Shown here: piece after piece, positions 3,253 through 60,200 of the stretch | Numbering within the stretch: the stretch's first letter is position 1 | Layout of the letters: every line of letters starts with the position of its first letter | Assembly: GCA_964638055.1 (NCBI GenBank) | Contig: CAZWXF010000001.1 | Coordinates: 63,115 to 127,114 of the forward strand | Reading direction: 5' to 3' | Length of the DNA stretch: 64,000 nt | Source of the DNA: an uncultured Bifidobacteriaceae bacterium | Lineage (GTDB): Bacteria; Actinomycetota; Actinomycetes; S36-B12; CAIYMF01 | The notes under the pieces: generated by a model | The model's input: the letters and a program-made list of their open reading frames with translations, nothing else | The model's database searches: none | Told to the model about the DNA's origin: nothing | Made by a program: the position numbers and the translations under genes

Positions 3253-4880
3253 GACGGCCGTCCGGGGGCCTGGACCACGAGGCTGGCCGCGCGCTGGCGC
3301 GCCGGCCCGTCCGCGGGCATCAGGGAGCGGTTGGTCGGGCCCAGGAGCAGGGTGAGGCCGTGCTGCGGCGGACGCAGCAGGACGACTGCCACCACCGTCG
3401 CGGCCAGGACGGCGGCGATGCCGTCGCGCACATCCACGACGGTGTCGGCGGTCGCGTTCGACTCGGCCATCCCGTGCACGATCAGCACGAGGGTCACCAG
3501 CAGCGCCAGCCGCAGTGCGCCGGCCCGCAGGCCCGTGGCCGCCAGCAGGGGCAGCGCCCAGAGCAGGTACCAGGGCTGCACGACCGGGCCCAGAGCCACC
3601 ACGGCGAGGAGGGCCAGGGCCGCCCCGCGCACGGCGCTGCGGCCGTGCGGGGCGAGCACCAGGTACAGGTAGATCACCGCGCCCACGAGCATGGCCAGGG
3701 CCCTGATCAACCCGACGGCGGTGTCGGTGCTCCCCAGTGAGATCCGCTCGAGCACCCAGCCCAGGATCATCCCGATGGCTGTCGACGGGGACAGCCACGT
3801 CCGTACGGAGCCCGGGGTGCTCAGCGAGGCGACCCACCCGAGCCCGACGCGGGCGACCACCGACAGCGCGACGAAGACGATCAGGACGAGCAGACCCGAC
3901 CTGGCCCAGGCTGCGATCCGCTGCCACCAACCCGCCCGGACCCCGGCCCAGACGAGGCCGGCGAAGGGCAGCACGATCAGGGCGATCGGCTTGACGGCTC
4001 CCGCCAGTCCGATCAGGACGATCCCTCGAACGGGAGAGCGATCGAGGCATCCGGCCAGGCCGGCCACGATCAGCCCGACCATCAGGGCGTCGTTGTGGGC
4101 CCCTGCGACGAAGTGCATGAGCACGAGCGGGTTGAGCACGGCCAGCCACAGTGCCGACGGCGCGTGGATGCCGTGGCGATGGGCGAGCTGGGGCACCTGG
4201 CGGACGAGCAGCATGACCCCGGTCAGGGCGACGAGCCGGAACAGGATGGCGCCGGCGTAGGCGTTCCGGCCGGCGACAGCGGCGACGCCCTGCTCGATGA
4301 GCAGGAAGGCCGGACCGTAGGGCGTGGGTGCCTCGGCCCACAGGGGGTCCGCGCCGCTCTGGAACCATCCCGGCAGTGCCGAGACCCCCTGCTGGTACGG
4401 GCTGATGCCGGCGAGCAGCAGCTGGCCCTGGGCGTAGTAGGAGTAGGCGTCCCGGCTGAACAGCGGGGGCATGAGGATCAGGGGCGCGATCCAGATCGCG
4501 AGGATCCGCGCCAGCCGGGTCACGTCGGCCTCGTGCCCGTCCAGGACCGCGATCCCCAGTCGTAGCCACGCCTGCAGGAGGACCGCGACGCCCAGGAACA
4601 CAGCGATGCGGGACAGGCCCGCGCCGGTCGTGGTCGCCCGCAGCCAGGTGACGATCGCAGCGTCCAGCAGCTGCGAGCTCGCCGGCAACCAGCCCACCCC
4701 GAGGGACCCCAGGAAGAGCAGCACGCTGCCCGCCATCCCCAGCAGGGCGTGGCTGCGGAAGCTCGGCGGTGGGGGCGGGGCCTCCGGCGCTGGCGGCAGG
4801 TCGAGCAGGTGCCGCTCGGGCGGGGGCATGGGGGGCAGGGTATCCGGGCCTGCGCGCGCATCCTGCCGCGCGAGCCCCAC
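3228..4880 (-). CDS. Polyprenol-phosphate-mannose-dependent alpha-(1->6)-mannosyltransferase-like GT-C membrane protein (MptA/MptB family)
   Basis: The protein has many TM segments. FSRDAYSYYAQGQ sits in the first loop and HNDAL is present. The gene lies between a kinase and a polyprenyl synthase, as Rv2174 does in M. tuberculosis. The true start is probably downstream of 4880 (for example MPPPER at 4829), because idsA starts only 17 nt away on the other strand. Confidence 0.7.
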   Translation of the reverse strand: MGLARQDARAGPDTLPPMPPPERHLLDLPPAPEAPPPPPSFRSHALLGMAGSVLLFLGSLGVGWLPASSQLLDAAIVTWLRATTTGAGLSRIAVFLGVAVLLQAWLRLGIAVLDGHEADVTRLARILAIWIAPLILMPPLFSRDAYSYYAQGQLLLAGISPYQQGVSALPGWFQSGADPLWAEAPTPYGPAFLLIEQGVAAVAGRNAYAGAILFRLVALTGVMLLVRQVPQLAHRHGIHAPSALWLAVLNPLVLMHFVAGAHNDALMVGLIVAGLAGCLDRSPVRGIVLIGLAGAVKPIALIVLPFAGLVWAGVRAGWWQRIAAWARSGLLVLIVFVALSVVARVGLGWVASLSTPGSVRTWLSPSTAIGMILGWVLERISLGSTDTAVGLIRALAMLVGAVIYLYLVLAPHGRSAVRGAALALLAVVALGPVVQPWYLLWALPLLAATGLRAGALRLALLVTLVLIVHGMAESNATADTVVDVRDGIAAVLAATVVAVVLLRPPQHGLTLLLGPTNRSLMPADGPARQRAASLVVQAPGRPSQKSAASR

Positions 4881-4897
4881 CCCCTACTCTTGCGCCC

Positions 4898-5968
4898 ATG
4901 GGCGACGGGTCTGCGCTGGCGCAGGAGCAGATGCTTGCCCGCGTCGACCACGTGCTCGGCGAGTTCCTCCAGGAGCAGGCCAAGCTGCTGGCCTCGATCT
5001 CCACCGAGCTGGAGCCCTTCGCGACGTGGTTGTCCGGGCTGCTGTCCGGGGGGAAGCGGCTGCGCCCGTCGTTCTGCATCTGGGGCTACGTCGCGGCGGG
5101 CGGGCACGACCTGCCGGCGGCGATGGGAGCGGCGGCCTCCCTGGAGCTGCTGCAGGCCGGTGCCCTGATCCACGACGATGTCATGGACGCCTCCGACGTC
5201 CGACGCGGGATGCCCGCGGCGCACCGCTCGTTCGCCGAGCATCACCGGGCGGCCGGGTGGACGGGGACCTCACAGCGATTCGGCGACGGCGTCGCGATCC
5301 TGCTCGGCGACATGGCCCTGTGCTGGGCCGACGAGCTGTTCGCCCGCTCCGGCTTCGACCCGGCGACGCTGGCCTCGGCGCGATGGGTCTTCGACATCAT
5401 GCGGACCGAGGTCATGGCCGGCCAGGTCCTCGACCTCGTGGAGCAGGCCAGGGGCGGGGGCTCCGCGCGACGAGCCCTGCACGTCGTGCGGTTCAAGTCG
5501 GCCAAGTACACGATCGAGCGCCCGCTGCATCTGGGCGCTGCGCTGGCCGGGGCCGATCGCCGGCTGCTGGCCGCCCTCTCCGACTACGGGCTTCCGCTGG
5601 GCGAGGCGTTCCAGCTGCGCGACGACATCCTGGGCGTCTTCGGCGACCCGGACACCACGGGCAAGCCGGCCGGCGACGACCTGCGTGAGGGCAAGCGCAC
5701 GCTGCTGCTGGCCGAGGCTGCCCAGCGTGCGGACCCGGAGCAGGCATCAGTCCTGGCTGCCGGCATCGGCGTGCGGGATCTCTCCGACGAACGGGTCGAG
5801 GAGCTTCGCTCCGTCATCATCGCCACGGGGGCCCGGGAGGAGGTCGAGTCGGTGATCACCGCTCGCACGCAGCAGGCGCTCACGGCGTTGGGCGCCATCG
5901 ACGTGCCCGACGACGCTCGGGATGCTCTGGCCGGCCTGGCACTGGCCGCTACGGAGCGTCGGCACTGA
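4898..5968 (+). CDS. idsA: Polyprenyl (geranylgeranyl) diphosphate synthase
   Basis: Both aspartate-rich motifs are present: LIHDDVMDASDVRRG and FQLRDDILGVFGD. I chose the ATG at 4898 (MGDGSALAQEQ). The longer track ORF from 4769 overlaps the divergent gene. Confidence 0.85.
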   Translation: MGDGSALAQEQMLARVDHVLGEFLQEQAKLLASISTELEPFATWLSGLLSGGKRLRPSFCIWGYVAAGGHDLPAAMGAAASLELLQAGALIHDDVMDASDVRRGMPAAHRSFAEHHRAAGWTGTSQRFGDGVAILLGDMALCWADELFARSGFDPATLASARWVFDIMRTEVMAGQVLDLVEQARGGGSARRALHVVRFKSAKYTIERPLHLGAALAGADRRLLAALSDYGLPLGEAFQLRDDILGVFGDPDTTGKPAGDDLREGKRTLLLAEAAQRADPEQASVLAAGIGVRDLSDERVEELRSVIIATGAREEVESVITARTQQALTALGAIDVPDDARDALAGLALAATERRH

Positions 5969-6961: not shown

Positions 6962-8707
6962 ATGGACGCCGCGCACGGTGCCGAGATCAGCCTGATCATC
7001 GCCGGTGTGATCCTCGCGGCGGTGATCGGCGTCCGCCTCGCCTCCCGCCTGGGACTGCCCGGTCTGCTGATCTACCTCCTCCTCGGCCTGGTCATCAGCG
7101 ACGACGGCCTGGGCCGGATCGAGTTCCAGGATGCCGAGCTGGCCACGGTCCTGGGCTATGCGGCACTCATCGTGATCCTGGCCGAGGGCGGCCTGACAAC
7201 CAGGCCGTCGAACATCCGTCCCGTCATCGTGCCCGGGATCATCCTGGGCACCCTGGGCGTGGCCCTGAGCATCCTGATCGTCGGCGTGCCCCTGGCCCTG
7301 CTCGCAGGCCTGGATGTCAAGACCGCGGTGCTCATTGGTGCGGTGCTCGCGCCCACCGACGCTGCCGCGGTGTTCACCGTCGCCCGGGGGATGCGACTGC
7401 CGGCACGCCTGCAGACCCTGCTCGAGGCCGAGTCTGGTCTCAACGACGCTCCGGTCGTCGTGCTCGTGGTCCTTCTGTCGACCTCGGCCAGCGCGGGGAT
7501 CCCGGCGTGGTCCGTGCCGATCGTCGTCCTGGTCGAGCTGGCCGGTGGCCTGCTCGTGGGCGTCGGGATCGGCCTCATGGCGCGATGGCTGCTGCCCCGG
7601 CTGGCCCTGCCGGCGGCGGGGCTGTACCCGATCGCCGTAGTGGCGCTGCTCCTGCTGGCGTACGGCACGGCGACTCTGCTGCACTGCTCGGGCTTCGCTG
7701 CGGTGTACGTGGTGGCCCTGATCCTGGCGGCGTCCCCGCTGCCGCACCGGCGGGCGGTGCTGGGGTTCATCGAGGGCCTGGCGTGGTCGGTGCAGATCGG
7801 CCTGTTCATCATGCTGGGCCTCCTGGCCGTGCCCCACCGGCTCGAGCACGTCATCGGCCTGGCACTGGGGACCGGCGTCCTGCTGCTGTTCCTGGCCCGT
7901 CCCCTGAGCGTCCTGGCGAGTCTGTGGCCGTTCGTCCGGCCGGGGTGGATCGCCCGGACGCTGCGGGTGGCGCCGATGCCCTGGCAGTGGGTCGCGTTCA
8001 CCGGATGGGGCGGCCTGCGTGGCGCGGTGCCGATCATCTTCGCGACGATCCCGCTGGGCGAGGGCGTGGCCGACGGCGAGCTGATCTTCGACGTGACGCT
8101 GCTGCTGGTGATCCTGCTGACGGTCGTCCAGGCGCCGACGATGCCGCCGCTGGCCAGGGCGCTGGGCCTCGTCGCGCCGGATCGGGCCGGGGAGCTGACG
8201 GTGGACGTGGCACCCCTGGACAGCCTGCGGGCCGCGTTGCTCGACCTGGACATCCAGGAGGGCTCGCAGCTTGCCGGGACGTACGTCTCCGAGCTGCCGC
8301 TGCCTCGAGGCGCGGTGGTGTCCCTGGTGATCCGGGGCCCGGAGACACTCGTGCCCGACCGCTTCACGCGGCTGCGCGTCGGGGACAGCCTGCTCGTGGT
8401 GGCGACCGACGAGGTCCGCGTGTCGACGGAGCGGGCTCTGCAGGCGGTCTCCCAGGGCGGCCGGTTGGCCGCGTGGTCCGATGAGGAATCGACGACCGGT
8501 TCGGTCGGGACGCCGAGCCGGGGCCGCGCCCGTGCCCGTTTCGGGGGCCGGGCCGGGCGGGGCAGGCCGTCGGGGCCGGACGAGGAACGAGGTGGATCAG
8601 GGGGTCGGGATCATGTCGGTGGTGGTTCGGGGCATGCGACCGGAAGTCCGGAGGGCCGCGGGTCGACGGGGCGGGGGCCGGCAGGAGGTGGTGGTCCCGT
8701 ACCGTGA
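6962..8707 (+). CDS. K+/H+ (monovalent cation:proton) antiporter, CPA1/NhaP2-like, with a C-terminal TrkA-C-like domain and a Gly/Arg-rich tail
   Basis: The N-terminal part has about 12 hydrophobic segments (GLPGLLIYLLLGLVI..., AESGLNDAPVVVL). It is followed by a soluble domain (LSELPLPRGAVVSLVIRG...LRVGDSLLVVA). The last 100 aa or so are low complexity. Confidence 0.8.
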   Translation: MDAAHGAEISLIIAGVILAAVIGVRLASRLGLPGLLIYLLLGLVISDDGLGRIEFQDAELATVLGYAALIVILAEGGLTTRPSNIRPVIVPGIILGTLGVALSILIVGVPLALLAGLDVKTAVLIGAVLAPTDAAAVFTVARGMRLPARLQTLLEAESGLNDAPVVVLVVLLSTSASAGIPAWSVPIVVLVELAGGLLVGVGIGLMARWLLPRLALPAAGLYPIAVVALLLLAYGTATLLHCSGFAAVYVVALILAASPLPHRRAVLGFIEGLAWSVQIGLFIMLGLLAVPHRLEHVIGLALGTGVLLLFLARPLSVLASLWPFVRPGWIARTLRVAPMPWQWVAFTGWGGLRGAVPIIFATIPLGEGVADGELIFDVTLLLVILLTVVQAPTMPPLARALGLVAPDRAGELTVDVAPLDSLRAALLDLDIQEGSQLAGTYVSELPLPRGAVVSLVIRGPETLVPDRFTRLRVGDSLLVVATDEVRVSTERALQAVSQGGRLAAWSDEESTTGSVGTPSRGRARARFGGRAGRGRPSGPDEERGGSGGRDHVGGGSGHATGSPEGRGSTGRGPAGGGGPVP

Positions 8708-8765: not shown

Positions 8766-10331
8766 TCAGGCCCTGCCGATGACCTGCGCGACGATCTCGG
8801 CGGAGAGCCCGACCATCGCCAGGCCCGGGCCCGGGTGGGTCGCGGCACCGACGAGGAAGAGGCCCGGGATCGCTGTGACGTTGCTTGGCCGGCGGCGCAG
8901 TGCATCGGCGGTCAGGGGCTCACCGAGCAGCGCCCCGCCGGGCATGCCGGTGGCCCGCTCCTGGTCTGCGGGGGTGTGGATCTCCCGGTGGCGGATCCGG
9001 CCTGAGAGGTCGGTGCCGCGATCGGCGAGGAGGCGCAGGACGCGGTCGGCCTGCTTCGTCGCGACGCCCGGGGCGTCCCAGTCCATCGTCGCGGGCTGGC
9101 GTCCGCCCGGGCTGTGCGGCGAGACGTCGACGTGGACCGTCCAGGCCTGCAGCCCCGCGGGATGCATCTGGGGGTCGGCGGGAACGTGGGCCCGGATGAC
9201 GGGGTCGGGATCGGGGGCGTCCGCGATCCTGGCGTGCCTCGACGACCGGCGCGCTGGGTCGACGGGAAGCCACACGTGCTCCCACGCTGGCCCCAGCGGT
9301 GGGGGTCCCCAGGTCGAGAGCATCAGGGTCAGCCGGCCGGGTGGCGCAGGCGGGCCGGTCCGGCGGAGGGCCGGGGCGGTGCGTCCCACCAGGCGGGCGG
9401 GGCGGGGTGCTGACCGGGGGGGCGGGTGCGGGGATGCCGTGCCCGGGGGCGCGGCATCGGGGGGGAGCAGTCCCCACACGGCGCTGGTCGAGGGAAGGTC
9501 GGCGACCACCACGTCAGCGGGCAGCCGGGAGGTCGTCGCGCCATCGGTGACCACGACACCGGTGACGCGGCCTGCCGCGAGCTCGATGCGCAGGGCCCGG
9601 GTGCCCAGGAGGACGCGGACCTCCCGCTGGCACACCCGGTCGTGCAGGGCCTGGGCGAGCCGGTGCATGCCGCCCCTGATGTGCCATGCGCCGAACGTCG
9701 CCGCCAGGTAGGGGCCCAGCACTGCGGCCGCCGTGGCGGACCGGGGATCCATCGGTAGGGGGAGTGACCGGTCGGCCATCACGGCACGGGCCCGGGGGTC
9801 GGTCAGGCTGCGCGTGAGGAGGTCCTGCAGGGTGGGTGGCCGGCGTCCGGGGTCGGTGGGGTTGAGCAGGGCGTCGAGCGCGGCAGCGGTCCGAGGAGCT
9901 GGGCCGGTCAGTCCACCGCGCACGAGTGCCCAGGTCGCGGCGGCGTGGGCCATCACCTCCTGCCATTCGGCGGCGCTGGCCGGCCCCAGGGCCTCGCCGA
10001 CGGCCGCTGCGGTCGCCCCCACTCCCGCTCCGGGCAGCTCCAGGTGCGTCCCGTCGGCGAAGTGGTAGTGAGCGGCCGGCTCCAGGGGCACGAGCTCCAC
10101 CTCGTCCTCCAGGGGGCCGCCGGTCTTGAGGAAGAGGTCGCGGTACACGGCGGGGAGGGTCAGGGCCGTTGGCCCCAGCTCGAAGGTGCACCCGTCCCGT
10201 TCGACGGCTCGGACCTGACCGCCCGGAGTCGTCGACGTCTCGACGAGAGTGACGTCGTGGCGCTTCACGGCCAGCCGTGCGGCGACGGCCATCCCACCCA
10301 GCCCGGCGCCGATGACGACGATCCTGGCCAT
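8766..10331 (-). CDS. Phytoene-desaturase-family (CrtI-like) FAD-dependent oxidoreductase
   Basis: The N-terminus has the dinucleotide-binding motif MARIVVIGAGLGGMAVAARL...LVETSTTPGG. The C-terminus has GLFLVGAATHPGPGL. There is an internal Pro/Arg-rich insertion. Confidence 0.75.
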   Translation of the reverse strand: MARIVVIGAGLGGMAVAARLAVKRHDVTLVETSTTPGGQVRAVERDGCTFELGPTALTLPAVYRDLFLKTGGPLEDEVELVPLEPAAHYHFADGTHLELPGAGVGATAAAVGEALGPASAAEWQEVMAHAAATWALVRGGLTGPAPRTAAALDALLNPTDPGRRPPTLQDLLTRSLTDPRARAVMADRSLPLPMDPRSATAAAVLGPYLAATFGAWHIRGGMHRLAQALHDRVCQREVRVLLGTRALRIELAAGRVTGVVVTDGATTSRLPADVVVADLPSTSAVWGLLPPDAAPPGTASPHPPPRSAPRPARLVGRTAPALRRTGPPAPPGRLTLMLSTWGPPPLGPAWEHVWLPVDPARRSSRHARIADAPDPDPVIRAHVPADPQMHPAGLQAWTVHVDVSPHSPGGRQPATMDWDAPGVATKQADRVLRLLADRGTDLSGRIRHREIHTPADQERATGMPGGALLGEPLTADALRRRPSNVTAIPGLFLVGAATHPGPGLAMVGLSAEIVAQVIGRA

Positions 10332-11336: not shown

Positions 11337-14300
11337 ATGGCTCGGTTCGTCCACCTGCATGTGGCCTCCGGGTACTCGATGCGCTACGGGACCGCCCGGC
11401 CGGAGGACCTTGTGGCGCAGGCTGCCGCGATGGGCCAGGAGGCGCTAGCCCTGACAGACCGGGACGGCGCCTACGGGGCCGTCGCCTTCGCCCTGGCGTG
11501 CCGTCAGGCCGGGATCGCACCGATCCTCGGCGCAGACCTGGCCACCGCCGCCCAGCTCTCGGCCGGCCGATCCACGGGACGCGCCGGAGGCGGACGCTCT
11601 GCGTCACCGCCGCGGACCCCGGTCCGGGGTGGGGCCTCGGTCGATCCGGGGCATCCCCGCCTGGTGCTGCTGGCCATCGGGGCGCCGGGGTGGGCTTCGC
11701 TCAGCAGGGTCATCTCGGCCGCACACCTCTCGGGCGAGCGCGGGCAGCCGGTCGTGTCCGGCGCGATGCTCGCCGAGCGCTCGCGGGGGCTGGCCGCCCT
11801 CATCGGCCCGGACTCCGACGTGGGCAGGGCGCTGGCCCGGCGCCGGCCGGACGAGGCCGCGCGGCTGCTCGCGGGGTGGCGTGAGGTGCTCGGGGCGGGC
11901 GTCCGGATCGAGGTGGTGTCCCACCGCAGCCAGGCTCGTGGGGATCGGCCCGCCTGGTCTGCCGCGTTCGCGGCCCGGATGGTGGACCTCGCCCGGCAGT
12001 GCGGCGTCCCGGCGGTGCTGACCAACGCGGTGCGTCACCTGACCCCGGAGCAGGCCCCCGTGGCGGACGTCCTGGACGCGATCCGGCGGCTGGTGCCGCT
12101 GGCCCCGCGGCACCTCGATCGGGCCAACGCCCAGGGCTATCTCAAGGATGCCGACTCGATGGCCGAGGTGGCCCGCGAGATCGCCGAGGCCGGGGGAGCG
12201 GGGGCGGGGTCGGCCAGCAGGCTGCTCGACGCGACGCTCGAGCTCGCCGACTCCTGTCGGATGGACCCGGCGCGGGACCTGGGCATCGGGTCGGTCCATG
12301 TCCCCGAGCTGGACGTGCTGTTCCCGCAGGGAGCCGCAGGACTCCCGCCGGGTCCCCTGCCGACGGCGACCGGAGCCCAGGCGCGGATGGCCGACCGCGT
12401 GCTGCGACACAGGTGCCAGGGCGCGCTCGATGCGCGCTTCGCAGCGCGCTGGGAGCACAGGGCGGCCACCGAGAGGCTCGAGGAGGAGCTGGCGACCATC
12501 GCCACGCTCGGGTACGGCGGGTACTTCCTTACCGTCGCGGAGGTGGTGGACATGATCCGTGGGATGGGGGTCCGGGTCGCCGCCCGCGGCTCCGGTGCAG
12601 GCAGCCTGGTGAACCACCTGCTCGGGATCTCGGTGGTCGACCCGCTGGAGCACGGGCTGATCATGGAGCGGTTCCTCTCCCCGCTGCGGCAGGCCCTGCC
12701 CGACGTGGACATCGACGTGGAGTCCGCCCGCCGCACCGAGATCTACACCCGGCTGCTCGCCCGGTTCGGTGGCCAGCGCTGCGTGGCGGTCTCGATGATG
12801 GACACCTACCGGGTCCGCCACGCGATCCGCGACGTGGGCGCTGCGCTCGGCCTGCCTCCCGGGGAGATCGACGCCTTCGCCAAGGCCTTCCCCCACATCC
12901 GGGCCCGGGACGCCCGGGCGGCGCTCGTGGAGCTGCCCGAGCTGCGCAGCTCCGGACTGGGCAAGCTCGCGGCGCAGGGTCGGTTGGAGGGATTCCTCAG
13001 CCTGGTCGAGGCCCTCGACGGGCTGCCCCGCCACGTCGCCCTGCACCCCTGCGGCGTGCTGCTCAGCGACGCCTCACTGCTGGACCGCACGCCCGTGGAG
13101 GCCAGCTGGATGGGCTTCCCGATGAGCCAGTTCGACAAGGACGCGGTCGAGGAGATGGGCTTCCTCAAGCTGGACGTCCTGGGCATCCGGATGCAGTCGG
13201 CAATGGCCCATGCCCTCGACGAGGTCGTCCGGCTCGGCGAGGAGCCGGTGTCCCTGGACGACCTTCCGCTGGACGATCCCGACACGTTCGCGATGATCCG
13301 CACGACCCATACCCTCGGCTGCTTCCAGATCGAGTCCCCCGGCCAGCGGGAGCTGATCGGGCGCTTCGCCCCGGAGACGTTCGCGGACCTGATCATCGAC
13401 ATCTCGCTGTTCCGGCCGGGGCCGGTCAAGTCCGACATGGTCAACCCCTTCCTGCGCGCCCGGCAGGGATGGTCCCCGGTGGACCTGCCCCATCCGGACC
13501 TGGGTCCCGTGCTCGACCAGACCCACGGCGTGGTGGTGTTCCACGAGCAGGTGATCGGGGTGATCGCCGTCATGAGCGGCTGCAGCCTGGCCGAGGGCGA
13601 CGAGCTGCGCCGCTCGATGGGATCGCCGGAGGGGCAGGCCCAGGTCCGGGCGTGGTTCTACCCACGGGTGCTGGCGCGGGGGTATCCCCTCGAGGTGGTC
13701 GACCGGGTCTGGGAGGTGCTGCGCTCCTTCGCGTCGTTCGGCTTCTGCAAGGCCCATGCCGCTGCGTTCGCGCTGCCCACGTACCAGTCGGCATGGCTCA
13801 AGGCTCACCATCCGGCCGCCTTCCTGGCCGGGGTGCTGACCCACGATCCCGGGATGTACCCGAAGCGCCTGATCCTCGATGATGCCCGCAACCTGGGCAT
13901 CACCATCCTCGGCGTGGACATCAACCGCTCGGGCCCGGTGTACCGGGTCGAGGAGTGGCCGACGCCGTCGGCTCGCCCGACGCTGCCGGGCCTGCCCGAT
14001 GGCAGCCACCACGGCATCCGGATGCCCCTGGCCGAGGTCAAGGGGATCTCCGCGGCCGAGGTGGCGCAGATCGTCGCAGGCCAGCCGTACAGCAGCCTCT
14101 CGGACTTCTGGCACCGGGCCGGAGTCACCGCCCCGGTCGTGGAGAACCTCGTCCTCATCGGCGGCTTCGACTCCGTCTACGGCATCGACCTCGCCAGCGG
14201 TGTCCGGGCGCGCGGCCAGACGACGCGACGGGACCTGCTGCTGGAGGTGGCCGACTGCGACCGGCTCTCCCGGGTCACCCGGGCGCGTCGGGCGGGCAGG

Positions 14301-15428
14301 GCCCGGGGGGCTCGGGCGGGCGGGGTGGGTTCGGTGGCCGGGCCGCAGGCGGGGAGCAGGAGCCCTCTCGGGGCGGACCTGGCAACAGCCTCCCGGGTCG
14401 GCGCGGCGTTCCGAGCCGGTGCTTCCTTCCGAGCCATGGCCCCCCCGACCGGCGGGATCGCCACGGCCGGCGCCGCCCTGGACGAGGAGGAGGTGCTCCG
14501 CAGCTGCGACGCGGTTCAGCCGGCTGGCCTGTCCGATCCCGCGCCACCCCCGCAGGCCTGGTGGGATCCGGCCCGCGCCGCTGCGGCGCAGTCCCAGGCC
14601 CCAGCCCCGGCGCTCGCCGGTCCGGTCCAGCTGGCCATGGACCTGCCCTCGCCGGGATCGGGGTGTGCCAGTGGGCTGCCCGAGATGACCACGGGGGAGA
14701 GCGTCCGCACGGAGCTGGGCATCCTGGGGATGGACGTGAGCCAGCACGTGCTGGACTTCTACGCCCCGATGCTCGCCGACATCGGGGTGGTGCCCGCCCG
14801 TGATCTCCTCGCCCAGCGCAGTCGGCAGGAGGTGTGGGTCGCCGGGGTGAAGGTGGCCACGCAGACCCCACCGATACGCAGCGGGCGCCGGGTGCTCTTC
14901 CTGACGGTCGACGACTCGACCGGTCCCGTGGACGCCACCTTCTTCGAGGACGCCCAGGATCCGTACGCCGCGACCGTCTTCGGTGGCTGGCTGCTGCTGG
15001 TCCGGGGCATCACCCGCCGCACCGGGCCCCGGGGGATATCCCTGCGGGCCACGGGCTGCTGGGATCTCGGCGTGGTCCACGGGATCTGGCAGGCCGGTGG
15101 TCGAGCCGGCGCCTGGGAGTACGTGAGCAGCTTCCCTCGGATCGAGGCTGACGGGCGGCCCACGAAGGTCGCCGACGTCCAGGTGGCGGGCGACCGGGAG
15201 ACGCCGCGGCAGCCGGGCCAGTCCGTGGTCGGCATCGGGCGCCATGCGTCAGGGGGCATGGGCCAGCGGCGACGGGTCCTGGTCCATGCCAGTGGGTTCA
15301 AGCAGTCGCCCTACGCGGACGTCAAGCCGGCAGGGGACGACCCGAGCGGCACCCCGCGGATACCCGAGCAGCCGACCCCCGCTCCCGGTCGGCTCTGGCA
15401 CGCCAGCCAGGGAAGCAGCGGCTGGTGA
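11337..15428 (+). CDS. dnaE2: Error-prone DNA polymerase III alpha-like subunit (DnaE2-like), with a large low-complexity insertion
   Basis: The N-terminus is a PHP domain (FVHLHVASGYSMRYG, LTDRDGAYG). The pol III alpha core is present (DVDIDVES, LKLDVLGIRMQS, GCFQIESPGQRE, FGFCKAHAAAFA). The C-terminus has an OB-fold region and ends in RLWHASQGSSGW. The window also contains a separate replicative dnaE. Confidence 0.85.
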   Translation: MARFVHLHVASGYSMRYGTARPEDLVAQAAAMGQEALALTDRDGAYGAVAFALACRQAGIAPILGADLATAAQLSAGRSTGRAGGGRSASPPRTPVRGGASVDPGHPRLVLLAIGAPGWASLSRVISAAHLSGERGQPVVSGAMLAERSRGLAALIGPDSDVGRALARRRPDEAARLLAGWREVLGAGVRIEVVSHRSQARGDRPAWSAAFAARMVDLARQCGVPAVLTNAVRHLTPEQAPVADVLDAIRRLVPLAPRHLDRANAQGYLKDADSMAEVAREIAEAGGAGAGSASRLLDATLELADSCRMDPARDLGIGSVHVPELDVLFPQGAAGLPPGPLPTATGAQARMADRVLRHRCQGALDARFAARWEHRAATERLEEELATIATLGYGGYFLTVAEVVDMIRGMGVRVAARGSGAGSLVNHLLGISVVDPLEHGLIMERFLSPLRQALPDVDIDVESARRTEIYTRLLARFGGQRCVAVSMMDTYRVRHAIRDVGAALGLPPGEIDAFAKAFPHIRARDARAALVELPELRSSGLGKLAAQGRLEGFLSLVEALDGLPRHVALHPCGVLLSDASLLDRTPVEASWMGFPMSQFDKDAVEEMGFLKLDVLGIRMQSAMAHALDEVVRLGEEPVSLDDLPLDDPDTFAMIRTTHTLGCFQIESPGQRELIGRFAPETFADLIIDISLFRPGPVKSDMVNPFLRARQGWSPVDLPHPDLGPVLDQTHGVVVFHEQVIGVIAVMSGCSLAEGDELRRSMGSPEGQAQVRAWFYPRVLARGYPLEVVDRVWEVLRSFASFGFCKAHAAAFALPTYQSAWLKAHHPAAFLAGVLTHDPGMYPKRLILDDARNLGITILGVDINRSGPVYRVEEWPTPSARPTLPGLPDGSHHGIRMPLAEVKGISAAEVAQIVAGQPYSSLSDFWHRAGVTAPVVENLVLIGGFDSVYGIDLASGVRARGQTTRRDLLLEVADCDRLSRVTRARRAGRARGARAGGVGSVAGPQAGSRSPLGADLATASRVGAAFRAGASFRAMAPPTGGIATAGAALDEEEVLRSCDAVQPAGLSDPAPPPQAWWDPARAAAAQSQAPAPALAGPVQLAMDLPSPGSGCASGLPEMTTGESVRTELGILGMDVSQHVLDFYAPMLADIGVVPARDLLAQRSRQEVWVAGVKVATQTPPIRSGRRVLFLTVDDSTGPVDATFFEDAQDPYAATVFGGWLLLVRGITRRTGPRGISLRATGCWDLGVVHGIWQAGGRAGAWEYVSSFPRIEADGRPTKVADVQVAGDRETPRQPGQSVVGIGRHASGGMGQRRRVLVHASGFKQSPYADVKPAGDDPSGTPRIPEQPTPAPGRLWHASQGSSGW

Positions 15429-15485
15429 TGGCGCGAGAGTGGCCAGCGCACCGGGTGACGGGCACAGGGCGCAGGGGACTGCAGG

Positions 15486-16769
15486 ATGGGGGGCACAGGA
15501 GGGTGGATGAGTCGAAGTCAGATCAACCGGCCGGCGGCTCCGGCGGGATTGGGCGACGACGATCGGGGCTGTCGCATCCTCCACGTGGACATGGACGCGT
15601 TCTACGCCTCGGTGGAGGTGGCGCGGCGCCCGGAGCTGCGTGGACGGCCGATGATCGTCGGGGGGATGGGCAGCCGGGGCGTCGTGCTGGCCGCCACCTA
15701 CGAGGCCCGTCGCCACGGCATCCACTCGGCGATGCCCATGAGTCGTGCCCTGCGCCTCGGACCGCCCGACCTGGTCGTCGTGCAGCCCGACCACGCGCGC
15801 TACGCCCAGGTGTCGGCTGCTGTCATGGAGGTGTTCACCTCGATCACGCCGTTCGTGGAGCCACTGAGCCTCGACGAGGCCTTCCTGGACGTGTCCGGCT
15901 GCCGGCTGACCCACGGCTCGCCGGGCGCGATAGCGGCGAGCATCCGCGATCAGGTCCACGACGAACAGGGCATCACCTGCTCGGTCGGGGTGGCGCCGAC
16001 GAAGTTCGTGGCCAAGCTGGCATCGACCCAGTGCAAGCCGGACGGCCTGCTGGTCGTGCCGGCCGACCAGGTGATCGCCTTCCTGCATCCCATGCCCGTG
16101 GGTGCCCTCTGGGGGGTGGGGGAGCGCACAGAGGAGCAGCTGCACCGCCTCGGCCTGCGCACGGTGGCCGACATCGCCCACACCCCGACCCAGACCCTCG
16201 TCCGCGCTCTGGGCCAGGCAGCGGGTCGCCATCTGGCGGATCTGGCCTGGGGTCGAGACGATCGCGACGTCACGCTGCATCAGCGGGAGCGCAGCGTGGG
16301 GGCCGAGGAGACCTTCGCGCGAGACGTCGACGATCCCGAGATCGTCCTGGCAGAGCTCCTGCGCCTCAGCGAGAAGGTGGGTGGCCGGATGCGACGGGCG
16401 GGGCTGTCGGGCAGCACGGTCACCATCAAGGTCCGGTTCGCCGACTTCAGCACGGTCACCCGATCCCGCCGCCTGCGTGCCTCGACCGCGGTGAGTCGGG
16501 AGATCTTCCATGGAGCTCGGGACCTCTACCTGGCCATGCACCTGGACCGGGCGCGGATACGACTGGTCGGCGTCCGGATGGAGGGGATCGCGCTGGAGGA
16601 GACCGTCGAGACGCAACTCATCCTGGGGGCGCCCGAGCGGGGCTGGCGGGAGGCCGAGCAGGCGGTGGACCGGGTGATCGCGAAGTTCGGCCGGGACACC
16701 GTCCGACATGCCCGCCTGATCCCCGAGAAGGGCCACGCGAGCGGCCATCCTGGGGGCACCCGACCATGA
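15486..16769 (+). CDS. dinB: DNA polymerase IV (Y-family), with catalytic residues present
   Basis: ILHVDMDAFYASVE, LSLDEAFLDVS and CSVGVAPTKFVAKLAS are present. The start may instead be the ATG at 15507 (MSRSQ). Confidence 0.9.
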   Translation: MGGTGGWMSRSQINRPAAPAGLGDDDRGCRILHVDMDAFYASVEVARRPELRGRPMIVGGMGSRGVVLAATYEARRHGIHSAMPMSRALRLGPPDLVVVQPDHARYAQVSAAVMEVFTSITPFVEPLSLDEAFLDVSGCRLTHGSPGAIAASIRDQVHDEQGITCSVGVAPTKFVAKLASTQCKPDGLLVVPADQVIAFLHPMPVGALWGVGERTEEQLHRLGLRTVADIAHTPTQTLVRALGQAAGRHLADLAWGRDDRDVTLHQRERSVGAEETFARDVDDPEIVLAELLRLSEKVGGRMRRAGLSGSTVTIKVRFADFSTVTRSRRLRASTAVSREIFHGARDLYLAMHLDRARIRLVGVRMEGIALEETVETQLILGAPERGWREAEQAVDRVIAKFGRDTVRHARLIPEKGHASGHPGGTRP

Positions 16770-17384: not shown

Positions 17385-17387
17385 CCC

Positions 17388-17703
17388 AGTAGAGACCAGA
17401 GGCGCCGGCCGAGAGGCGCCGGTCGAGCCCAAACGCCGGTCGAGCCCGTCGAGACCAGCGCCCATCGAGCCCAGCGTCGAGCCCAGCGCCGGTCGAACCC
17501 AAACGCCGGTCGAGCCTGTCGAGACCAGCGCCCGTCGAGCCCAGCGCCGCTCGAGCCCAGCGTCGAGCCCAGCGCCGGTCGAGCCCAAACGCCGGTCGAG
17601 CCTGTCGAGACCAGCGCCCGTCGAGCCCAGCGCCGCCAGAGCCCGTCGAGCCCAGCGCCGGTCGAGCCCGTCGAGACCAGCGCCGGTCGAGCCCGTCGGG
17701 TCG
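17388..17703. repeat. Degenerate tandem array of the GTCGAGCCC/GTCGAGACC repeat family (locus A)
   Basis: GTCGAGCC[C/T], GTCGAGACC and AGCGCC(G) modules recur many times, with an 86-bp higher-order period between 17501 and 17587. An inverted copy GTCTCGACGGGCTCGACC lies at 17796-17813. Confidence 0.85.
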
Positions 17704-17815
17704 GATCATCGGGGGAAAGCCATGGCACCGGCGGGCATGGCTCGTGGCTGCCTGTCCCGTGCCTGTCCCGCGGCCAAGAGGTCGTGCGACAGTGCGTCTC
17801 GACGGGCTCGACCCG

Positions 17816-17846
17816 CGTCTTGGGTCTCACTCGGAGACCCAAGACG
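17816..17846. terminator. Bidirectional hairpin between convergent genes
   Basis: The stem is a perfect 13-bp pairing, CGTCTTGGGTCTC / GAGACCCAAGACG, with loop ACTCG. It lies 7 nt from the stop of the minus-strand hydrolase gene. GTCTTGGGTCTC recurs at 60167-60178. Confidence 0.6.
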
Positions 17847-17853
17847 AGATGTG

Positions 17854-21370: not shown

Positions 21371-22062
21371 GCGCCACAGACACGGCCGTCCTCCCCGACG
21401 ACGCGTCCGTGGCTGTGCCTGCGGACGCTGGGGCCGATGCCACCGCAGTCGCTGCCCACGCCCGCCCGGCACCGGCAACAGGGATGCGGCCGGCAGGGCG
21501 TCATCGGACGCTCATCGCGAGCACTGGCGCGCTCGTCGTGGGCCTGCTGGGCGTGCTGCTCATCAACACCGTCGTCAGCCAGGGAGCATTCCGGCAGCAT
21601 CAGCTGGAGGTCGACCTCACCCTGGCCTCCGAGCAGGAGGAGGCCCTCACGCGTGCCGTCCAGCTGGCCGAGTCGCCCCTGGAGGTGGAGAAGGCCGCCC
21701 GTGCCCTGGGCATGGTCCCCGCGGGCAGCCCCGTCTTCCTGCGCCTCGCCGACGGCTCGATCCTCGGATCTCCCGTCCCCGCCACGGCGCCCTTCGGCGA
21801 AGTGGACTACTCCGGTGCCCCCGGCGTCACCGTGCCGACTCCCGACCCTGCCGATCCTTCGGTCGATCCCTCGACGGGAGCGACCCTGCTGCCCGCGGAC
21901 GGGTCGCCCAGCACTGATCCGTCGCCCAGCACTGATCCGATGGCGGACCCGCTCGTGCCCTCCCCGATCAGCCCGACGCCCGGGGCGACCCCATCGGCCA
22001 CGGACCCGACGGGGACCGCAGCGACCTGGACCGCGCCACCCGCTGGGATGACGACGCCATGA
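21367..22062 (+). CDS. ftsL: Cell division protein FtsL-like: single TM, coiled coil and a Pro/Ser/Thr-rich tail
   Basis: It lies between rsmH and ftsI. ATGA overlaps occur at both ends. A TM segment LIASTGALVVGLLGVLLINTVV is followed by a helical segment. Confidence 0.8.
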   Translation: MSATDTAVLPDDASVAVPADAGADATAVAAHARPAPATGMRPAGRHRTLIASTGALVVGLLGVLLINTVVSQGAFRQHQLEVDLTLASEQEEALTRAVQLAESPLEVEKAARALGMVPAGSPVFLRLADGSILGSPVPATAPFGEVDYSGAPGVTVPTPDPADPSVDPSTGATLLPADGSPSTDPSPSTDPMADPLVPSPISPTPGATPSATDPTGTAATWTAPPAGMTTP

Positions 22063-45332: not shown

Positions 45333-45424
45333 GCCCGCGGCAGGGCTCGGATGTCCCGGCGTACGGCCGGCGGTCGGCGTGGCGCGCGTCAGGGCCCTCG
45401 GGTCGGGTGCTGGATGGTGCCCGA

Positions 45425-48400
45425 TCAGCCCAGGCAGTGCGGGCCGAGCAGCGCCTTGAGGTCGCCGTACAGCGCCGAGGACGGGCTGACCCGCAGCCGC
45501 TCGTCGATCGACAGCACGGTCGTGCGGGCCCCGTTGCGGATGTGCAGGTGGACCGGCGCCATGCCGGGGTGCCCCGCCAGGACCTCGCGCAGCCGAGCGA
45601 CCACCGGCGGGATGCAGCGGCTCACGTCCAGATGCAGCGCGACCGGGGCGCTGCGGCCGTCCTCGACGACGTTGGGCGCGGAGATGTCGGTCGCCCGGAG
45701 CTTGGCCGCACCCTCGTCGCCGCGGTCGATCCGGCCGCGCACCACCAGGACCCGGTCCTCGGCGATGTGCGGTCCGGCGGTCGCGTACAGCGCGGGGAAG
45801 CACAGCACCTCCACCGAACCGGCGAGGTCCTCCAGCGTGAACAGCGCCCACGGCTCGCCCTTGGCGCGCGTGGTCTTGCGCTGCACCCCGGTGACCAGGC
45901 CCGCCACGGTCACCGGCTGGCCGTCCGACACCGACTCGCCCGAGAGGGCGGAGATCGGCATGTCCGCCAAGGAGGACAGGACGTTCTCCAAGCCGAAGAG
46001 GGGATGGTCGCTGACGTAGAGCCCGAGCATGTCGCGCTCGTGCGCGAGCAGGGTCCGCTTGTCCCACTCGGTCGGTGGCGGGGTGACGCGCACGCCCGCG
46101 GCGACCTCGGACTGGTCGTCGTCGAGGTCGGCGAAGAGGTCGAACTGCCCCATCGCCTGGGAGCGCTTGGTGTCCAGGGCCGCGTCGATCGTCTGCTCGT
46201 GGATGGACACCAGCCCGTGGCGGGTATGGCCGAAGCTGTCGAAGGCGCCTGCCTTGATCAGCGAATCCACGACCCTCTTGTTGCAGACCGAGATCTCCAC
46301 CTTGTCGATGAAGTCGTGGAAGTCGGCGAAGCGGCCCTTGCTCGTGCGGGTCCGGATGATGGACTCCACGACGTTGGTCCCGACGTTGCGGATCGCGGAC
46401 AGGCCGAACCGGACGTCGGTCCCGCGCGGCGCGAAGTCCGACTGCGACTCGTTGACATCCGGCGGCAGGACCTTGATGCCCATCCGGCGGCACTCGTTGA
46501 GGTAGATCGCGGACTTGTCCTTGTCGTCGGCGATCGAGGTCAGCAGGGCGGCCATGTACTCGGCCGGGTAGTTGGCCTTGAGGTAGGCCGTCCAGTACGA
46601 GACCAGCCCGTAGCCCGCGGTGTGCGCCTTGTTGAAGGCGTAGTCGGAGAACGGGACGAGCGTCGCCCACAGGGCCTCGATCGACGCCTCGGAGTACCCG
46701 CTCGCACGCATCCCCTCGGCGAAGGGCACGTACTCCTTGTCCAGGATCTCCTTCTTCTTCTTGCCCATCGCGCGGCGCAGCAGGTCTGCCTTGCCCAGCG
46801 AGTAGCCGGCCAGCTGCTGGGCGATCGCCATGACCTGTTCCTGGTAGACGATCAGGCCGTAGGTGTCGGCCAGCAGTGCGTCCAGGGGTCCGGCCAGCTC
46901 CGGATGGATCGGCTTGATCTCCTGGCGGCCGTTCTTGCGGTCGGCGAAGTCGTTGTGGGCGTTGACGCCCATCGGTCCCGGCCGGTAGAGGGCAAGCACC
47001 GCGGAGATGTCCTCGAAGTCCGTCGGGCCCAGGCGCACGAGCAGTGCCCTCATGCCCGCGTTGTCCAGCTGGAACACGCCCAGGGTGTCGCCACTGGCCA
47101 GGAGCCTGTATGTCGCCGGGTCATCCAGGGTGAGCTCCTCCAGGACCACTTTCTCCCCGCGGTTGCTCTCGATGTGCCGCAGCGCGTCGTCGAGGATCGT
47201 CAGGTTGCGCAGGCCCAGGAAGTCCATCTTGAGCAGGCCGAGGGACTCGCAGGCGCCCATGTCGAGCTGGGTGATGATCGAGCCGTCGGCCTCCCGGCGC
47301 ATGATCGGCACCACGTCGAGCAGGGGCTCGGCCGACAGGATCACACCCGCGGCGTGCACGCCCCACTGCCGGCGCAGACCCTCCAGGCCCCTGGCCGTGT
47401 CGACGACCTCGCGCAGCGCCTCCTCCGAGTCGTAGAGGGCGCGGAACTCTCCCGCCTCCTTGTACCGCTCGTGGTTCTCGTCGAAGATCCCGGCCAGCGG
47501 GATGTCCTTGCCCATCACAGCGGGCGGCATCGCCTTGGTGAGCCGCTCGCCCACGGCGAAGGGATGTCCGAGCACCCGGGCGGAGTCCTTCAGGGCGGCC
47601 TTGGCCTTGATCGTGGAGTAGGTGACGATCTGGGCGACGCGCTCCTCGCCGTAGCGGTCGGTGGCGTAGCGGATCATCTCGGAGCGCCGGCGCTCGTCGA
47701 AGTCCATGTCGATGTCGGGCATCGAGATGCGCTCGGGGTTGAGGAACCGCTCGAACAGCAGTCCGTGGGCCATGGGGTCCAGCTCGGTGATGCCCAACGC
47801 GTAGGCGACGAGTGCGCCGGCTGCCGAACCGCGCCCGGGGCCCACACGGATCCCGACCTCCTTGGCGTGGGCGACCAGGTCGGCGGTGACGAGGAAGTAC
47901 CCCGGGAACCCCATCTGGTTGATCACGCCCAGCTCGAAAGCGGCCTGCTGGCGGCGATCCTCGGGCACGCCGCCCGGGTACCGGCGGGCCAAGCCCCGCT
48001 CCACCTCCTTGACCAGCCACGAGTCCTCCGACTCCCCCTCGGGCACGGGGAAGCGGGGCATGAGATTGCGACCTTCGGCGAACTCCACGGAGCAGCGCTC
48101 GGCAACGGCCAGGGTGTTGTCGCAGGCCTCCGGGAGCTCGGCCCAGACCCGGCGCATGTCCTCGGCGGAGCGCAGGTAGAAGTCCCGCGCGTCGAACCTG
48201 AAGCGGTTGGGGTCGGCCAGCGTCTTGCCCGTCTGCACGCACAGCAGCACCTCGTGGGCGTCGGCGTCGCCGGCGAACGTGTAGTGCAGGTCGTTGGTCG
48301 CCAGCAGGGGGAGCTTGAGGTCCCGCGCGATCCGCAGCAGGTCCTCGCGGGTGCGCCGCTCGATCTCCAGGCCGTGGTCCATGAGCTCGCAGAAGAAGTT

Positions 48401-48979: not shown

Positions 48980-49254
48980 GGGGCCTCCAAGACCGTCGGG
49001 AAGGGGCTGTGCGTCGGGCTCGATCCTAGGGCCTGTCTGATGGATCGACGGCTGGGCGGCGCGGCTCCCGTGGGGGCGTTCGCGGCGTCCTCGTCGGTCG
49101 ACGCACCCGCCGGGTGCGCCTCCCTCCTCCTCCTTGCGAACACTCCCACGGAAACCGCTCGCTGCCAGCGGACCCATCAGACAGGCCCTGCTCGCGAGCC
49201 CGACATCACCCTGAAGGCGCCGATCCGGCGGGGCTCCGGTGGCAGACTCGGGCC

Positions 49255-49752
49255 ATGCCCAAGAAGGCGCCGGGCCGGGCAGGCACGCCTGCGACCCGCA
49301 TCCTGGCGGATGCCGCGGTGACCCACGTCCTGCGGACCTACAAGGACGATCCTCGGTCGGACTCCTCCGGCCCCGCCGCCGCCGCTGAGCTCGGCGTGCC
49401 CCCGGATCGGATCCTCACGACGCTGCTGGCCGATGTGGACGGCGACCTGGTCGTGGGGATCGTGCCGGTCTCCGGGACGCTCGACTTCAGCCTGCTGGCG
49501 GCGGCGGTCGGCGGGAAGCGGGCTGCCATGGCCCCCGTGGAGCAGGCCGAGAGGGCGACCGGCTACGTGGCCGGGGGCATCTCCCCGCTTGGCCAGCGCA
49601 CAGCGCATCCGACGGTCCTGGACGAGTCGGCGCTGAGGCACTCGACGGTCCTCGTGTCGGGCGGGCGTCGGGGCCTGGACGTCGAGATCGACCCACACGA
49701 CCTGATGGACCTGACGAACGCCCGCGCCGCCCCCATCTCCCGGCGGAGCTGA
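49255..49752 (+). CDS. ybaK: YbaK/EbsC-family Cys-tRNA(Pro)/aminoacyl-tRNA deacylase
   Basis: Its size and the segments TLLADVDGDLVVGIVPVSGTLD...GYVAGGISPLG resemble the YbaK domain. I trimmed the start to ATG 49255. Confidence 0.7.
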   Translation: MPKKAPGRAGTPATRILADAAVTHVLRTYKDDPRSDSSGPAAAAELGVPPDRILTTLLADVDGDLVVGIVPVSGTLDFSLLAAAVGGKRAAMAPVEQAERATGYVAGGISPLGQRTAHPTVLDESALRHSTVLVSGGRRGLDVEIDPHDLMDLTNARAAPISRRS

Positions 49753-49876
49753 GGCTCGCCGGGCCCGGACCCTGCCGGGTCGGGGGCCTGGCGGCTGGGC
49801 GGTACGGTTGGGGGACAGTTCCGGGGGACACGGTCGGCAGGGAAGGCATGCGCCGCCCGCGGTCAGGCCGGCAGGG

Positions 49877-55282: not shown

Positions 55283-55286
<4 letters not shown>
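54699..55286 (+). CDS. hisB: Imidazoleglycerol-phosphate dehydratase
   Basis: [24 protein letters not shown] and [14 protein letters not shown] are present. An RBS GAGGGAGGA precedes ATG 54699. Confidence 0.95.
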
Positions 55287-57458
<2,172 letters not shown>

Positions 57459-57461
57459 GGG

Positions 57462-59996: not shown

Positions 59997-60002
59997 GCGC
60001 GC

Positions 60003-60190: not shown

Positions 60191-60200
60191 TACGACCCGG

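Follow-up and report, generated by a model that had tools for sequence, protein, structure and literature searches.

Repeat Arrays in the 64-kb Window

The stretch of DNA analyzed here (64,000 nucleotides of an uncultured Bifidobacteriaceae bacterium, 72% G+C, referred to below as the window) was found to carry four arrays of short repeats built around an 18-nucleotide core, GTCGAGCCCGTCGAGACC. The question raised by these loci is what kind of sequence forms them and how it came to occupy four separate gene junctions. The arrays are read here as clusters of an interspersed hairpin element similar to repetitive extragenic palindromes (REPs) and bacterial interspersed mosaic elements (BIMEs), amplified locally by slippage, and a probability of about two in three is assigned to this reading.

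The core was counted at ≤2 mismatches, with 100 dinucleotide-preserving shuffles of the window serving as the null. Eighteen copies were obtained compared with 0.04 ± 0.20 expected, of which 17 lie inside the four arrays, the remaining copy (two mismatches) being within pheT at 57561. The initial annotation had reported repeats at these four loci with an inverted copy beside the first and a forward copy closing the fourth, and both were recovered, on the minus strand at 17795–17812 (one mismatch) and on the plus strand at 60141–60158, respectively. A covariance model of the repeated unit gave 12 matches in the window at E ≤ 0.011, every one inside the arrays, and the total for the four loci in 64 kb is 12–18 units. 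A longer core, GCCGGTCGAGCC[C/T]GTCGAGACC, is common to the arrays.

The Repeated Unit

The arrays had been described initially as built from 9-mer modules. These modules proved to be the two halves of a unit of ~25 nt, ccgNT-GGTC-GAGCYYGTCGA-GACC, in which a 4-bp stem encloses a conserved 11-nt loop. The stem in this genome is GGTC/GACC and the loop GAGCCCGTCGA, the form found elsewhere being GAGCYTGTCGA, and each unit holds two GTCGAG hexamers with a spacing of 9 bp. In degenerate variants the centre GAGCYTGTCGA is kept and the four bases on either side of it change together.

The stem was examined in 87 unique copies from other genomes which do not match the 18-mer and are therefore unbiased by the query. 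Perfect 4-bp Watson-Crick stems of seven types were present in 60 of these (GGTC/GACC in 32 copies, GATC/GATC in nine, GGTT/AACC in eight, GATT/AATC in six, CCCT/AGGG in two, and CCCC/GGGG and TGTC/GACA in one each). Paired cells amounted to 89.9% compared with 75.4 ± 1.1% in shuffles (0 of 500), double-sided changes numbered 54 compared with 12.4 ± 2.9 (0 of 500), and the covariation score was 0.509 vs. 0.237. Sliding the partner by 1–3 columns left only 27–53% paired. Covariation was seen in all four stem pairs, and only pairs 1–4 were above expectation, pairs 5–10 being at expectation. On the forward strand G·T combinations outnumbered A·C by 16 to 4. The unpaired 5′ flank, C-C-G-N-T, is conserved (C in 70, G in 77 and T in 58 of the 87 copies), and the 3′ flank is not.

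As the changes in the stem are compensatory, pairing of nucleic acid is favored over a protein half-site. Some structure within the loop itself is conceivable, in which tandem G·A pairs and a G-C pair would close a CYUGU pentaloop. A tiny stem combined with a long invariant loop suggests that some factor recognizes the loop.

Anatomy of the Four Arrays

Array periods were taken from Tandem Repeats Finder and unit coordinates from the covariance-model matches, with flanking genes identified using NCBIfam and Pfam. Each array lies between identified genes and is intergenic, as had been annotated. Spacers within one array are copies of each other (97% identity in array 2), and units abut or stand 8–30 nt apart.

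Array 1 consists of direct forward units and half-units (17416–17694, plus strand; periods of 86 and 70 bp with sub-periods of 25, 16, and 12) located 3′ of an SCO2097-family gene on the plus strand (stop at 17384), which converges on a minus-strand α/β-hydrolase gene (stop at 17854). Full hairpin units were placed at 17432–17462, 17502–17532, 17588–17618, and 17654–17684 (E 1e-6 to 4e-4). A minus-strand unit at 17789–17819 (20.3 bits, E 0.011) pairs with a forward unit of the array, and a perfect hairpin with a 12-bp stem, GTCTTGGGTCTC-actcg-GAGACCCAAGAC, evident in both the sequence and the fold, occupies 17817–17845, 8 nt from the hydrolase stop.

Array 4 sits at the second convergent junction, between pheT (stop at 59996) and a minus-strand EgtC-like gene (stop at 60201). 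It is composed of reverse units and half-units 3′ of pheT (60002–60123, minus strand; periods of 24, 18, and 27 bp over 60002–60120), with units at 60011–60041 and 60093–60123 from the covariance model and an exact 18-mer at 60041–60058. A forward unit at 60134–60164 and one of the array's reverse units together make a stem of ~23 bp, and GTCTTGGGTCTC together with a degenerate reverse unit (60159–60196) abuts the EgtC-like stop; E-values for the region 60134–60196 were 0.0015 and 0.21. The 12-mer GTCTTGGGTCTC had been proposed as a module shared by two of the arrays. It is indeed present twice, at 17817 and 60166, and its complement occurs at 17834, but it was found in none of 150 other loci and is thus local to the window and outside the family core.

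The other two arrays lie between co-directional genes. Array 2 (54495–54644, minus strand) is within the his operon, beginning 70 nt past the hisC stop (54430) and preceding the hisB ATG (54699). Its period is 39 bp (3.7 copies over 54500–54644, 97% matches), with units at 54495–54525, 54534–54564, and 54573–54603, a weak unit at 54611–54642, and a small spacer hairpin, CGCGGGACGCCCCGCG, after each unit. Array 3 (56103–56247, plus strand) begins 15 nt past the hisH stop (56088) and finishes ~100 nt before the pheS ATG (56349). Its period is 27 bp (five copies over 56103–56238, 86% matches), and units were placed at 56139–56159, 56160–56190, and 56214–56244 with a weak unit at 56106–56136, the best score being 37.4 bits.

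The sequence GATCGCC flanks array 2 on both sides (54489–54497 and 54653–54663; cttGATCGCCcgg ... gtgGATCGCCagc). This could be a target-site duplication or chance, and no comparable duplication was seen at the other three arrays.

Position, Orientation, and Folding

When the non-coding sites were tabulated against their flanking genes, as the initial annotation had proposed, 24 were found at convergent, 48 at co-directional and 10 at divergent junctions, an enrichment at gene 3′ ends which is REP-like. At co-directional sites the unit is in the sense orientation in 22 cases and antisense in 21, giving no strand bias relative to transcription, and of the four arrays in the window two (1 and 3) run forward and two (2 and 4) in reverse. 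This balance, together with the mixed orientation in the window, makes a strand-specific RNA role unlikely.

Strong folds were obtained only where inverted copies occur. The convergent junctions of array 1 (17385–17853) and array 4 (59997–60200) gave z-scores of −4.69 and −3.71, whereas the intra-operon arrays gave −1.69 (array 2) and +0.79 (array 3, unstructured). The fold of array 1 contains a long-range stem involving the inverted unit as well as the 12-bp hairpin at 17817–17845, and that of array 4 contains the ~23-bp stem in which a reverse unit pairs with the forward unit. Canonical terminators and promoters were sought in 54000–61500 and none were found, U-tailed terminators included.

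Coding Status of the Arrays

The possibility of a coding repeat was rejected for the window, since the periods of array 1 (86 and 70 bp) are not multiples of three and stop and start codons flank the arrays. The non-coding call carries the caveat that, in DNA of 72% G+C, stop-free open reading frames (ORFs) cross the arrays. None of the six frames of the 24-nt unit contains a stop codon, which makes gene callers liable to false N-terminal extensions and spurious small proteins.

Two such frames were observed. A GTG-started ORF (54537–55286) crosses array 2 (54537–54698) into hisB and reads a 13-residue stretch three times ahead of the genuine hisB start. In the frame of hisH past its TGA stop (56089–56310), array 3 reads as a stop-free Pro/Glu-rich tail. 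Read-through of the stop codon would append this tail to HisH; the shared frame is probably a coincidence, the chance being one in three.

Occurrence in Other Actinomycetota

The query GTCGAGCCYGTCGAGACC was scanned against 185,579 species genomes and matched at least 120 stretches. The matches listed include Nocardioides, Cryobacterium, Leifsonia, Salinibacterium, Arthrobacter, Promicromonospora, Isoptericola, Micropruina, and Propionicimonas along with many metagenome-assembled genomes of Actinomycetota, and several actinobacterial orders are represented among them. In these listed matches, 112 of 167 copies fall outside coding-like ORFs according to a classifier based on G+C content at third codon positions (GC3). 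The initial annotation's view of a dispersed repeat family was therefore upheld, and the two possibilities that would undo it, restriction of the 18-mer to the window and an effect of codon usage, were both tested and not borne out. The coding matches fall mainly in a Val-Glu-Pro-Val-Glu-Thr (VEPVET) frame or in one opposite-strand frame and, by a hand estimate, are expected by chance from preferred codons. True coding arrays of the 18-mer do occur in loci L034 and L084.

Non-coding copies take three forms, namely isolated units, direct arrays and inverted pairs. Direct arrays in other genomes have array-specific spacers and periods of 23–148 bp, which are mostly not multiples of three, and in many of them a run of truncated 5′ part-units leads up to a single complete unit, an arrangement expected from slippage between the internal GTCGAG repeats. 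The suggestion that arrays expand locally by slippage from a seed fits both features. Inverted pairs 2–100 nt apart are present in L021, L105, L010, and L093, those in L021 and L105 being perfect palindromes, while two stem subtypes alternate in opposite orientation, in the manner of BIMEs, in L007 and L070. The consensus of 81 loci is cCGgTG-GTCGAGCCTGTCGAGACC with unconserved flanks. An identical core of 19–24 nt recurs in unrelated intergenic settings across orders, and many copies sit just past stop codons.

When plasmids were searched with the GGTC-type consensus, one clear carrier was identified, Arthrobacter sp. ERGS1:01, with 15 unannotated places on a 754-kb replicon; the other matches were single and mostly inside coding sequences, and were read as chance. 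Array 1 gave no meaningful match to plasmids, viral contigs gave only 11 single-copy matches, and a phage or plasmid origin was rejected on these grounds. A G-quadruplex was likewise rejected, as the GGG runs of the reverse strand are unconserved, the loop in most genomes carrying CCT in place of CCC.

Two observations were made in Nocardioides alcanivorans. In strain NGK65 (L117) a 507-amino-acid ORF with a C-terminal HNH endonuclease motif (3318–4841, minus strand), presumably of the DUF222/13E12-repeat type, has a large array of the element on either side, the two being in inverted orientation. It is probably incidental, being the single such motif in ~1 Mb of element-bearing loci. In addition, two separate arrays (L111, ~7700–7720; L117, ~4880–4900) end beside GGTGGTTGTCCACAG, which contains a perfect high-GC DnaA-box-like 9-mer, TTGTCCACA, and may be part of a larger repeat in that genome.

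Occurrence in Proteobacteria

Versions with CCCT...AGGG stems were expected in Proteobacteria. The L100 variant was compared by BLAST with 72,556 plasmids, and the matches were mostly in unannotated DNA. Sphingobium has up to 10 places per ~1-Mb replicon, and further carriers were Sphingomonas, Novosphingobium, Rhizorhabdus, Variovorax, Comamonas, Nitratireductor, Phyllobacterium, Moraxella osloensis, and Microbacterium. Five of seven sampled loci contain inverted pairs (Sphingobium, Novosphingobium, Variovorax, Comamonas, and Moraxella), and a model built from the actinobacterial copies picks up the two arms of every one of these pairs. The Sphingobium pair is nested in a larger palindrome and adds the Watson-Crick stems GGCT/AGCC and TCCT/AGGA around an identical loop.

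On plasmid p2 of Moraxella osloensis (L145, 1495–1556) a GC-rich inverted pair lies between genes for a TonB-dependent receptor and a SIP-domain protein. Its surroundings are AT-rich (the locus has 43% G+C), suggesting that the element, or the segment carrying it, arrived horizontally.

It can be proposed, tentatively, that a single hairpin element with a variable 4-bp stem, an essentially invariant GAGCYTGTCGA loop and a one-sided CCGNT(C) flank is common to Actinomycetota and Alpha-, Beta-, and Gammaproteobacteria in lineage-specific forms, direct arrays here and inverted pairs in Proteobacteria. Conservation of the loop across phyla in patchily distributed non-coding DNA would, if true, imply a conserved trans-acting factor, and it is difficult to see how a selfish repeat lacking a shared partner could have attained such a distribution. 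The factor would recognize the folded single strand and mobilize or maintain the element; it could be an analog of the REP-associated tyrosine transposases (RAYTs) outside their known range, or a universal host enzyme.

Closest Relatives and Synteny

Nine relatives were compared, with HisB proteins 87–96% identical to that of the window and a nucleotide identity of 84–87% in the two compared by BLAST. Identity to the nearest relatives found is only 84–90%. The units are absent from them at the same junctions. The hisC-hisB gap measures 0–119 bp in all nine and contains no array, the orthologous junctions are compact, and the stretch holding array 2 (54431–54682) has no counterpart. The covariance model applied to 127 kb from the closest relatives returned nothing better than E 0.17. 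The element is present in several actinobacterial orders and, with other stems, in Proteobacteria, and is missing from the 127 kb of the closest relatives.

Array 3 lies exactly on a break in synteny. In all relatives extending far enough hisH is followed by hisA, and pheS comes after infC-rpmI-rplT-trmH, whereas in the window the his operon ends at hisH and pheST follows directly. Homology to hisH stops at ~56090, homology to the region upstream of pheS starts at 56288, and array 3 fills the gap. The junction reflects either recombination between dispersed repeats or a chimeric assembly at the repeat. As array 3 illustrates, assemblers can break or mis-join at the element.

A second rearrangement involves the dnaE block and the next gene (45422–49755), which stand in the opposite orientation in every relative examined. 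Neither end of the inverted block carries a copy of the repeat core. An unrelated 34-nt inverted repeat (49013–49046 / 49171–49204) is located upstream of dnaE.

Proposed Origin and Role of the Arrays

The strand carrying the loop probably folds as single-stranded nucleic acid, as indicated by the excess of G·T over A·C combinations on the forward strand and by the conservation of its 5′ flank only. The random orientation of the units with respect to transcription favors DNA over RNA as the folding form. Copies may have been seeded between genes by some process and then amplified in place by slipped-strand mispairing, both between the two GTCGAG half-repeats and between neighboring units, which would generate the locus-specific periods of 86/70, 39, 27, and 24/18 bp. 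At convergent junctions the combination of forward and reverse copies would give long stable hairpins, which probably act as bidirectional terminators lacking a U-tail or protect the 3′ ends of mRNAs. Within operons, the purely direct arrays are probably near-neutral passengers. Dispersed arrays may also offer homology for rearrangement, as at array 3.

Several points weigh against a REP/BIME-like element. No RAYT, Y1 or other transposase, nor any other mobile-element gene, was found among the genes of the 64-kb window, and the genes enclosed by inverted copies elsewhere are housekeeping genes. Head-to-tail arrays dominate the window and are negligible among classical REPs. With a 4-bp stem and an 11-nt loop a lone unit is thermodynamically weak, and the stem variants may go back to a small number of propagated lineages and not to many separate compensatory changes.

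Four other explanations were weighed. The arrays might be binding sites for a protein reading 9-bp-spaced GTCGAG repeats on double-stranded DNA, in the manner of iterons or centromere-like sites; a precedent is clt, the 8-bp repeats to which TraB, an FtsK-like protein of conjugative elements in actinomycetes, binds. The two hexamers per unit, the direct arrays, the lack of orientation bias relative to transcription and the high conservation of the 11-bp centre across genera are all compatible with this. However, changes in the flanking 4 bp compensate each other so as to preserve base pairing, for which protein half-sites have no need, the unit spacing is irregular and array-specific (23 to 148 bp), the element is missing from close relatives at the same loci, and the neighboring genes have no common function, making such an explanation improbable. 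Just as improbable is a structured RNA, either a cis-regulatory element of 3′ untranslated regions or a module of a small RNA (sRNA), that acts after transcription. Although the excess of G·U-compatible changes over A·C on one strand (16 to 4), the copies lying just past stop codons and the resemblance of the proteobacterial inverted pair to part of RF02901, a transcribed sRNA candidate, would suit an RNA, sense and antisense copies are balanced at co-directional sites (22 vs. 21), arrays 2 and 3 have no significant fold, and no Rfam family was matched at its gathering score (0 matches in the window; 29.9 against 97 bits for RF02901).

A neutral minisatellite derived from coding-like sequence, whether through decay of PVEPVET linkers or codon slippage, would account for a core made of preferred codons (GTC GAG CCC GTC GAG ACC), for the periods divisible by three (39, 27, 24, and 18 bp), for the continuation of the hisH frame through array 3 and for the coding arrays in L034 and L084. 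It would leave unaccounted for the periods of 86 and 70 bp in array 1, the mostly non-triplet arrays of other genomes and the identical 19–24-nt core in unrelated intergenic contexts across orders. Moreover, covariation of a stem around a fixed loop is unexpected for decayed coding sequence, and this origin is accordingly judged very unlikely. In-frame PVEPVET tails on hisH, hisC, or pheT homologs were seen in none of nine relatives. Slightly less credit still is given to remnants of transposons, that is, miniature inverted-repeat transposable elements (MITEs) or solo terminal inverted repeats in which the unit is a transposon end. Such remnants are suggested by the inverted pairs 2–100 nt apart (L021, L105, L010, and L093), the patchy distribution among close relatives and the copy on a low-GC Moraxella plasmid. 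Against them, inverted copies 400–4000 bp apart enclose glnR, panE, ndk and similar genes and no transposase, only one HNH-type gene is found in ~1 Mb of loci, the viral contigs hold 11 single-copy matches only and array 1 lacks a meaningful plasmid match, no consistent target-site duplication was seen, and terminal inverted repeats would not be expected to give rise to direct arrays.

The REP/BIME-like hairpin element amplified by slippage is therefore preferred, on the evidence of enrichment over chance, covariation of the stem, the lack of orientation bias and the restriction of strong folds to junctions with inverted copies, in a family which is non-coding and whose units are absent from the closest relatives at the same junctions.

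Other Features of the Window

The remainder of the window contains dnaE2/dinB, the dcw cell-division cluster, dnaE and his genes. Directly upstream of array 1 is an error-prone polymerase cluster (11337–16769) made up of a dnaE2-type gene for a second Pol III alpha subunit (11337–15428) and a dinB-type Pol IV gene (15486–16769). Two further tandem repeats, at 9388–9454 and 21903–21939, are unrelated to the family; one is a G-rich repeat of 29 bp (2.5 copies) and the other a perfect 18-bp duplication, GTCGCCCAGCACTGATCC (2.1 copies).

Significance

REP-like repeats influence the makeup of bacterial genomes; they end transcripts, stabilize mRNA, bind nucleoid proteins and serve as recombination substrates, but to our knowledge they are poorly catalogued in high-GC Gram-positive bacteria. 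The covariance model provides a defined and searchable unit for Actinomycetota, and the arrays are candidate variable-number tandem repeat markers.

Comparison with Known Systems

In full-text searches of the literature that was accessible, neither the 18-mer and the loop strings nor descriptive terms led to an account of the element. A scan of the window with Rfam at gathering thresholds gave 0 matches, and permissive scans gave only noise (Burkholderiales-2, E 0.63, and microRNA models) and a sub-threshold resemblance to RF02901 (AaHKsRNA41, an sRNA candidate from Aggregatibacter). The consensus of RF02901 holds CUGAGCUUGcCGAAG ... CUUCGgCAAGCUCAG, which is near-identical to the hairpin pair of Sphingobium, Moraxella and Variovorax. 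Nevertheless, the best score was 29.9 bits for the Sphingobium copy compared with a gathering score of 97, and the likeness extends to the palindrome only; the match is a local resemblance and not membership.

A clustered regularly interspaced short palindromic repeat (CRISPR) array, in which identical repeats alternate with unique spacers of similar length, was rejected, given that spacers within an array are copies of each other and no cas genes are present in the window. As regards MITEs, some pairs of the element are inverted, and neither a transposase-bearing relative nor a consistent target duplication was found. The BOX elements of Streptococcus pneumoniae are modular, with a variable number of an internal sub-unit, are dispersed between genes and have no known transposase; the element would resemble them in all of these respects, but the sequences are probably unrelated, and BOX modules are 45–59 nt long and specific to one lineage.

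The initial annotation had suggested a REP- or MIRU-type family, and of the two only the former comparison stands. Mycobacterial interspersed repetitive units (MIRUs) are Mycobacterium-specific units of 40–100 bp whose small ORFs extend over the stop and start codons of the adjacent genes. The likeness of arrays 2 and 3 to them lies in direct tandem repeats of tens of bp between operon genes of an actinobacterium with a locus-specific copy number. Units of the window are, however, 24–39 bp long, hairpin-based and clear of flanking stop and start codons, and also occur singly and inverted; the MIRU assignment was rejected on the periods of 39 and 27 bp and on the distance of arrays 2 and 3 from the hisC and hisH stops and the pheS ATG.

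REPs have been classified into GTAG- and CGTC-tagged super-families with stems of 5–13 bp and mostly short loops, usually of 2–5 nt, most dimers being inverted and the share of those arranged head-to-tail negligible (Di Nocera et al., 2013; PMC3733652). No Actinobacteria are among the organisms of that classification, and the loop described here is missing from its supplements (PMC3733652). A phylogenomics paper on RAYT/HUH proteins likewise makes no mention of Actinobacteria. The element departs from REPs in having a 4-bp stem, an 11-nt loop and a CCGNT tag, neither GTAG nor CGTC. It further differs in that its loop is conserved across phyla, REP families being usually species- or genus-specific. 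GTAG REPs flank a dedicated RAYT (Y1 transposase), and no RAYT was found in the 64-kb window or between the inverted copies in the loci; the lack of an adjacent transposase is shared with CGTC REPs. REPs number tens to thousands of copies in a genome, and the counts obtained for the element are the 12–18 units of the 64-kb window and the 15 places on the 754-kb Arthrobacter replicon. Pairs are inverted in L021, L105, L007, L070 and the sampled proteobacterial pairs, with the window being mostly head-to-tail. On the other hand, a short extragenic stem-loop unit (20–40 bp) with a covarying stem and a conserved unpaired motif on one side only is typical of REPs and BIMEs, such as the PU/BIME of E. 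coli, as are its occurrence as singles, inverted dimers and clusters, including the alternating stem subtypes in L007 and L070, its location mainly at convergent and co-directional sites, and its patchy presence among related genomes. REPs are thus a fair functional analogy, and the element is more than a local minisatellite, being a hairpin family of unusual anatomy and very wide, patchy distribution which here takes the form of tandem arrays.

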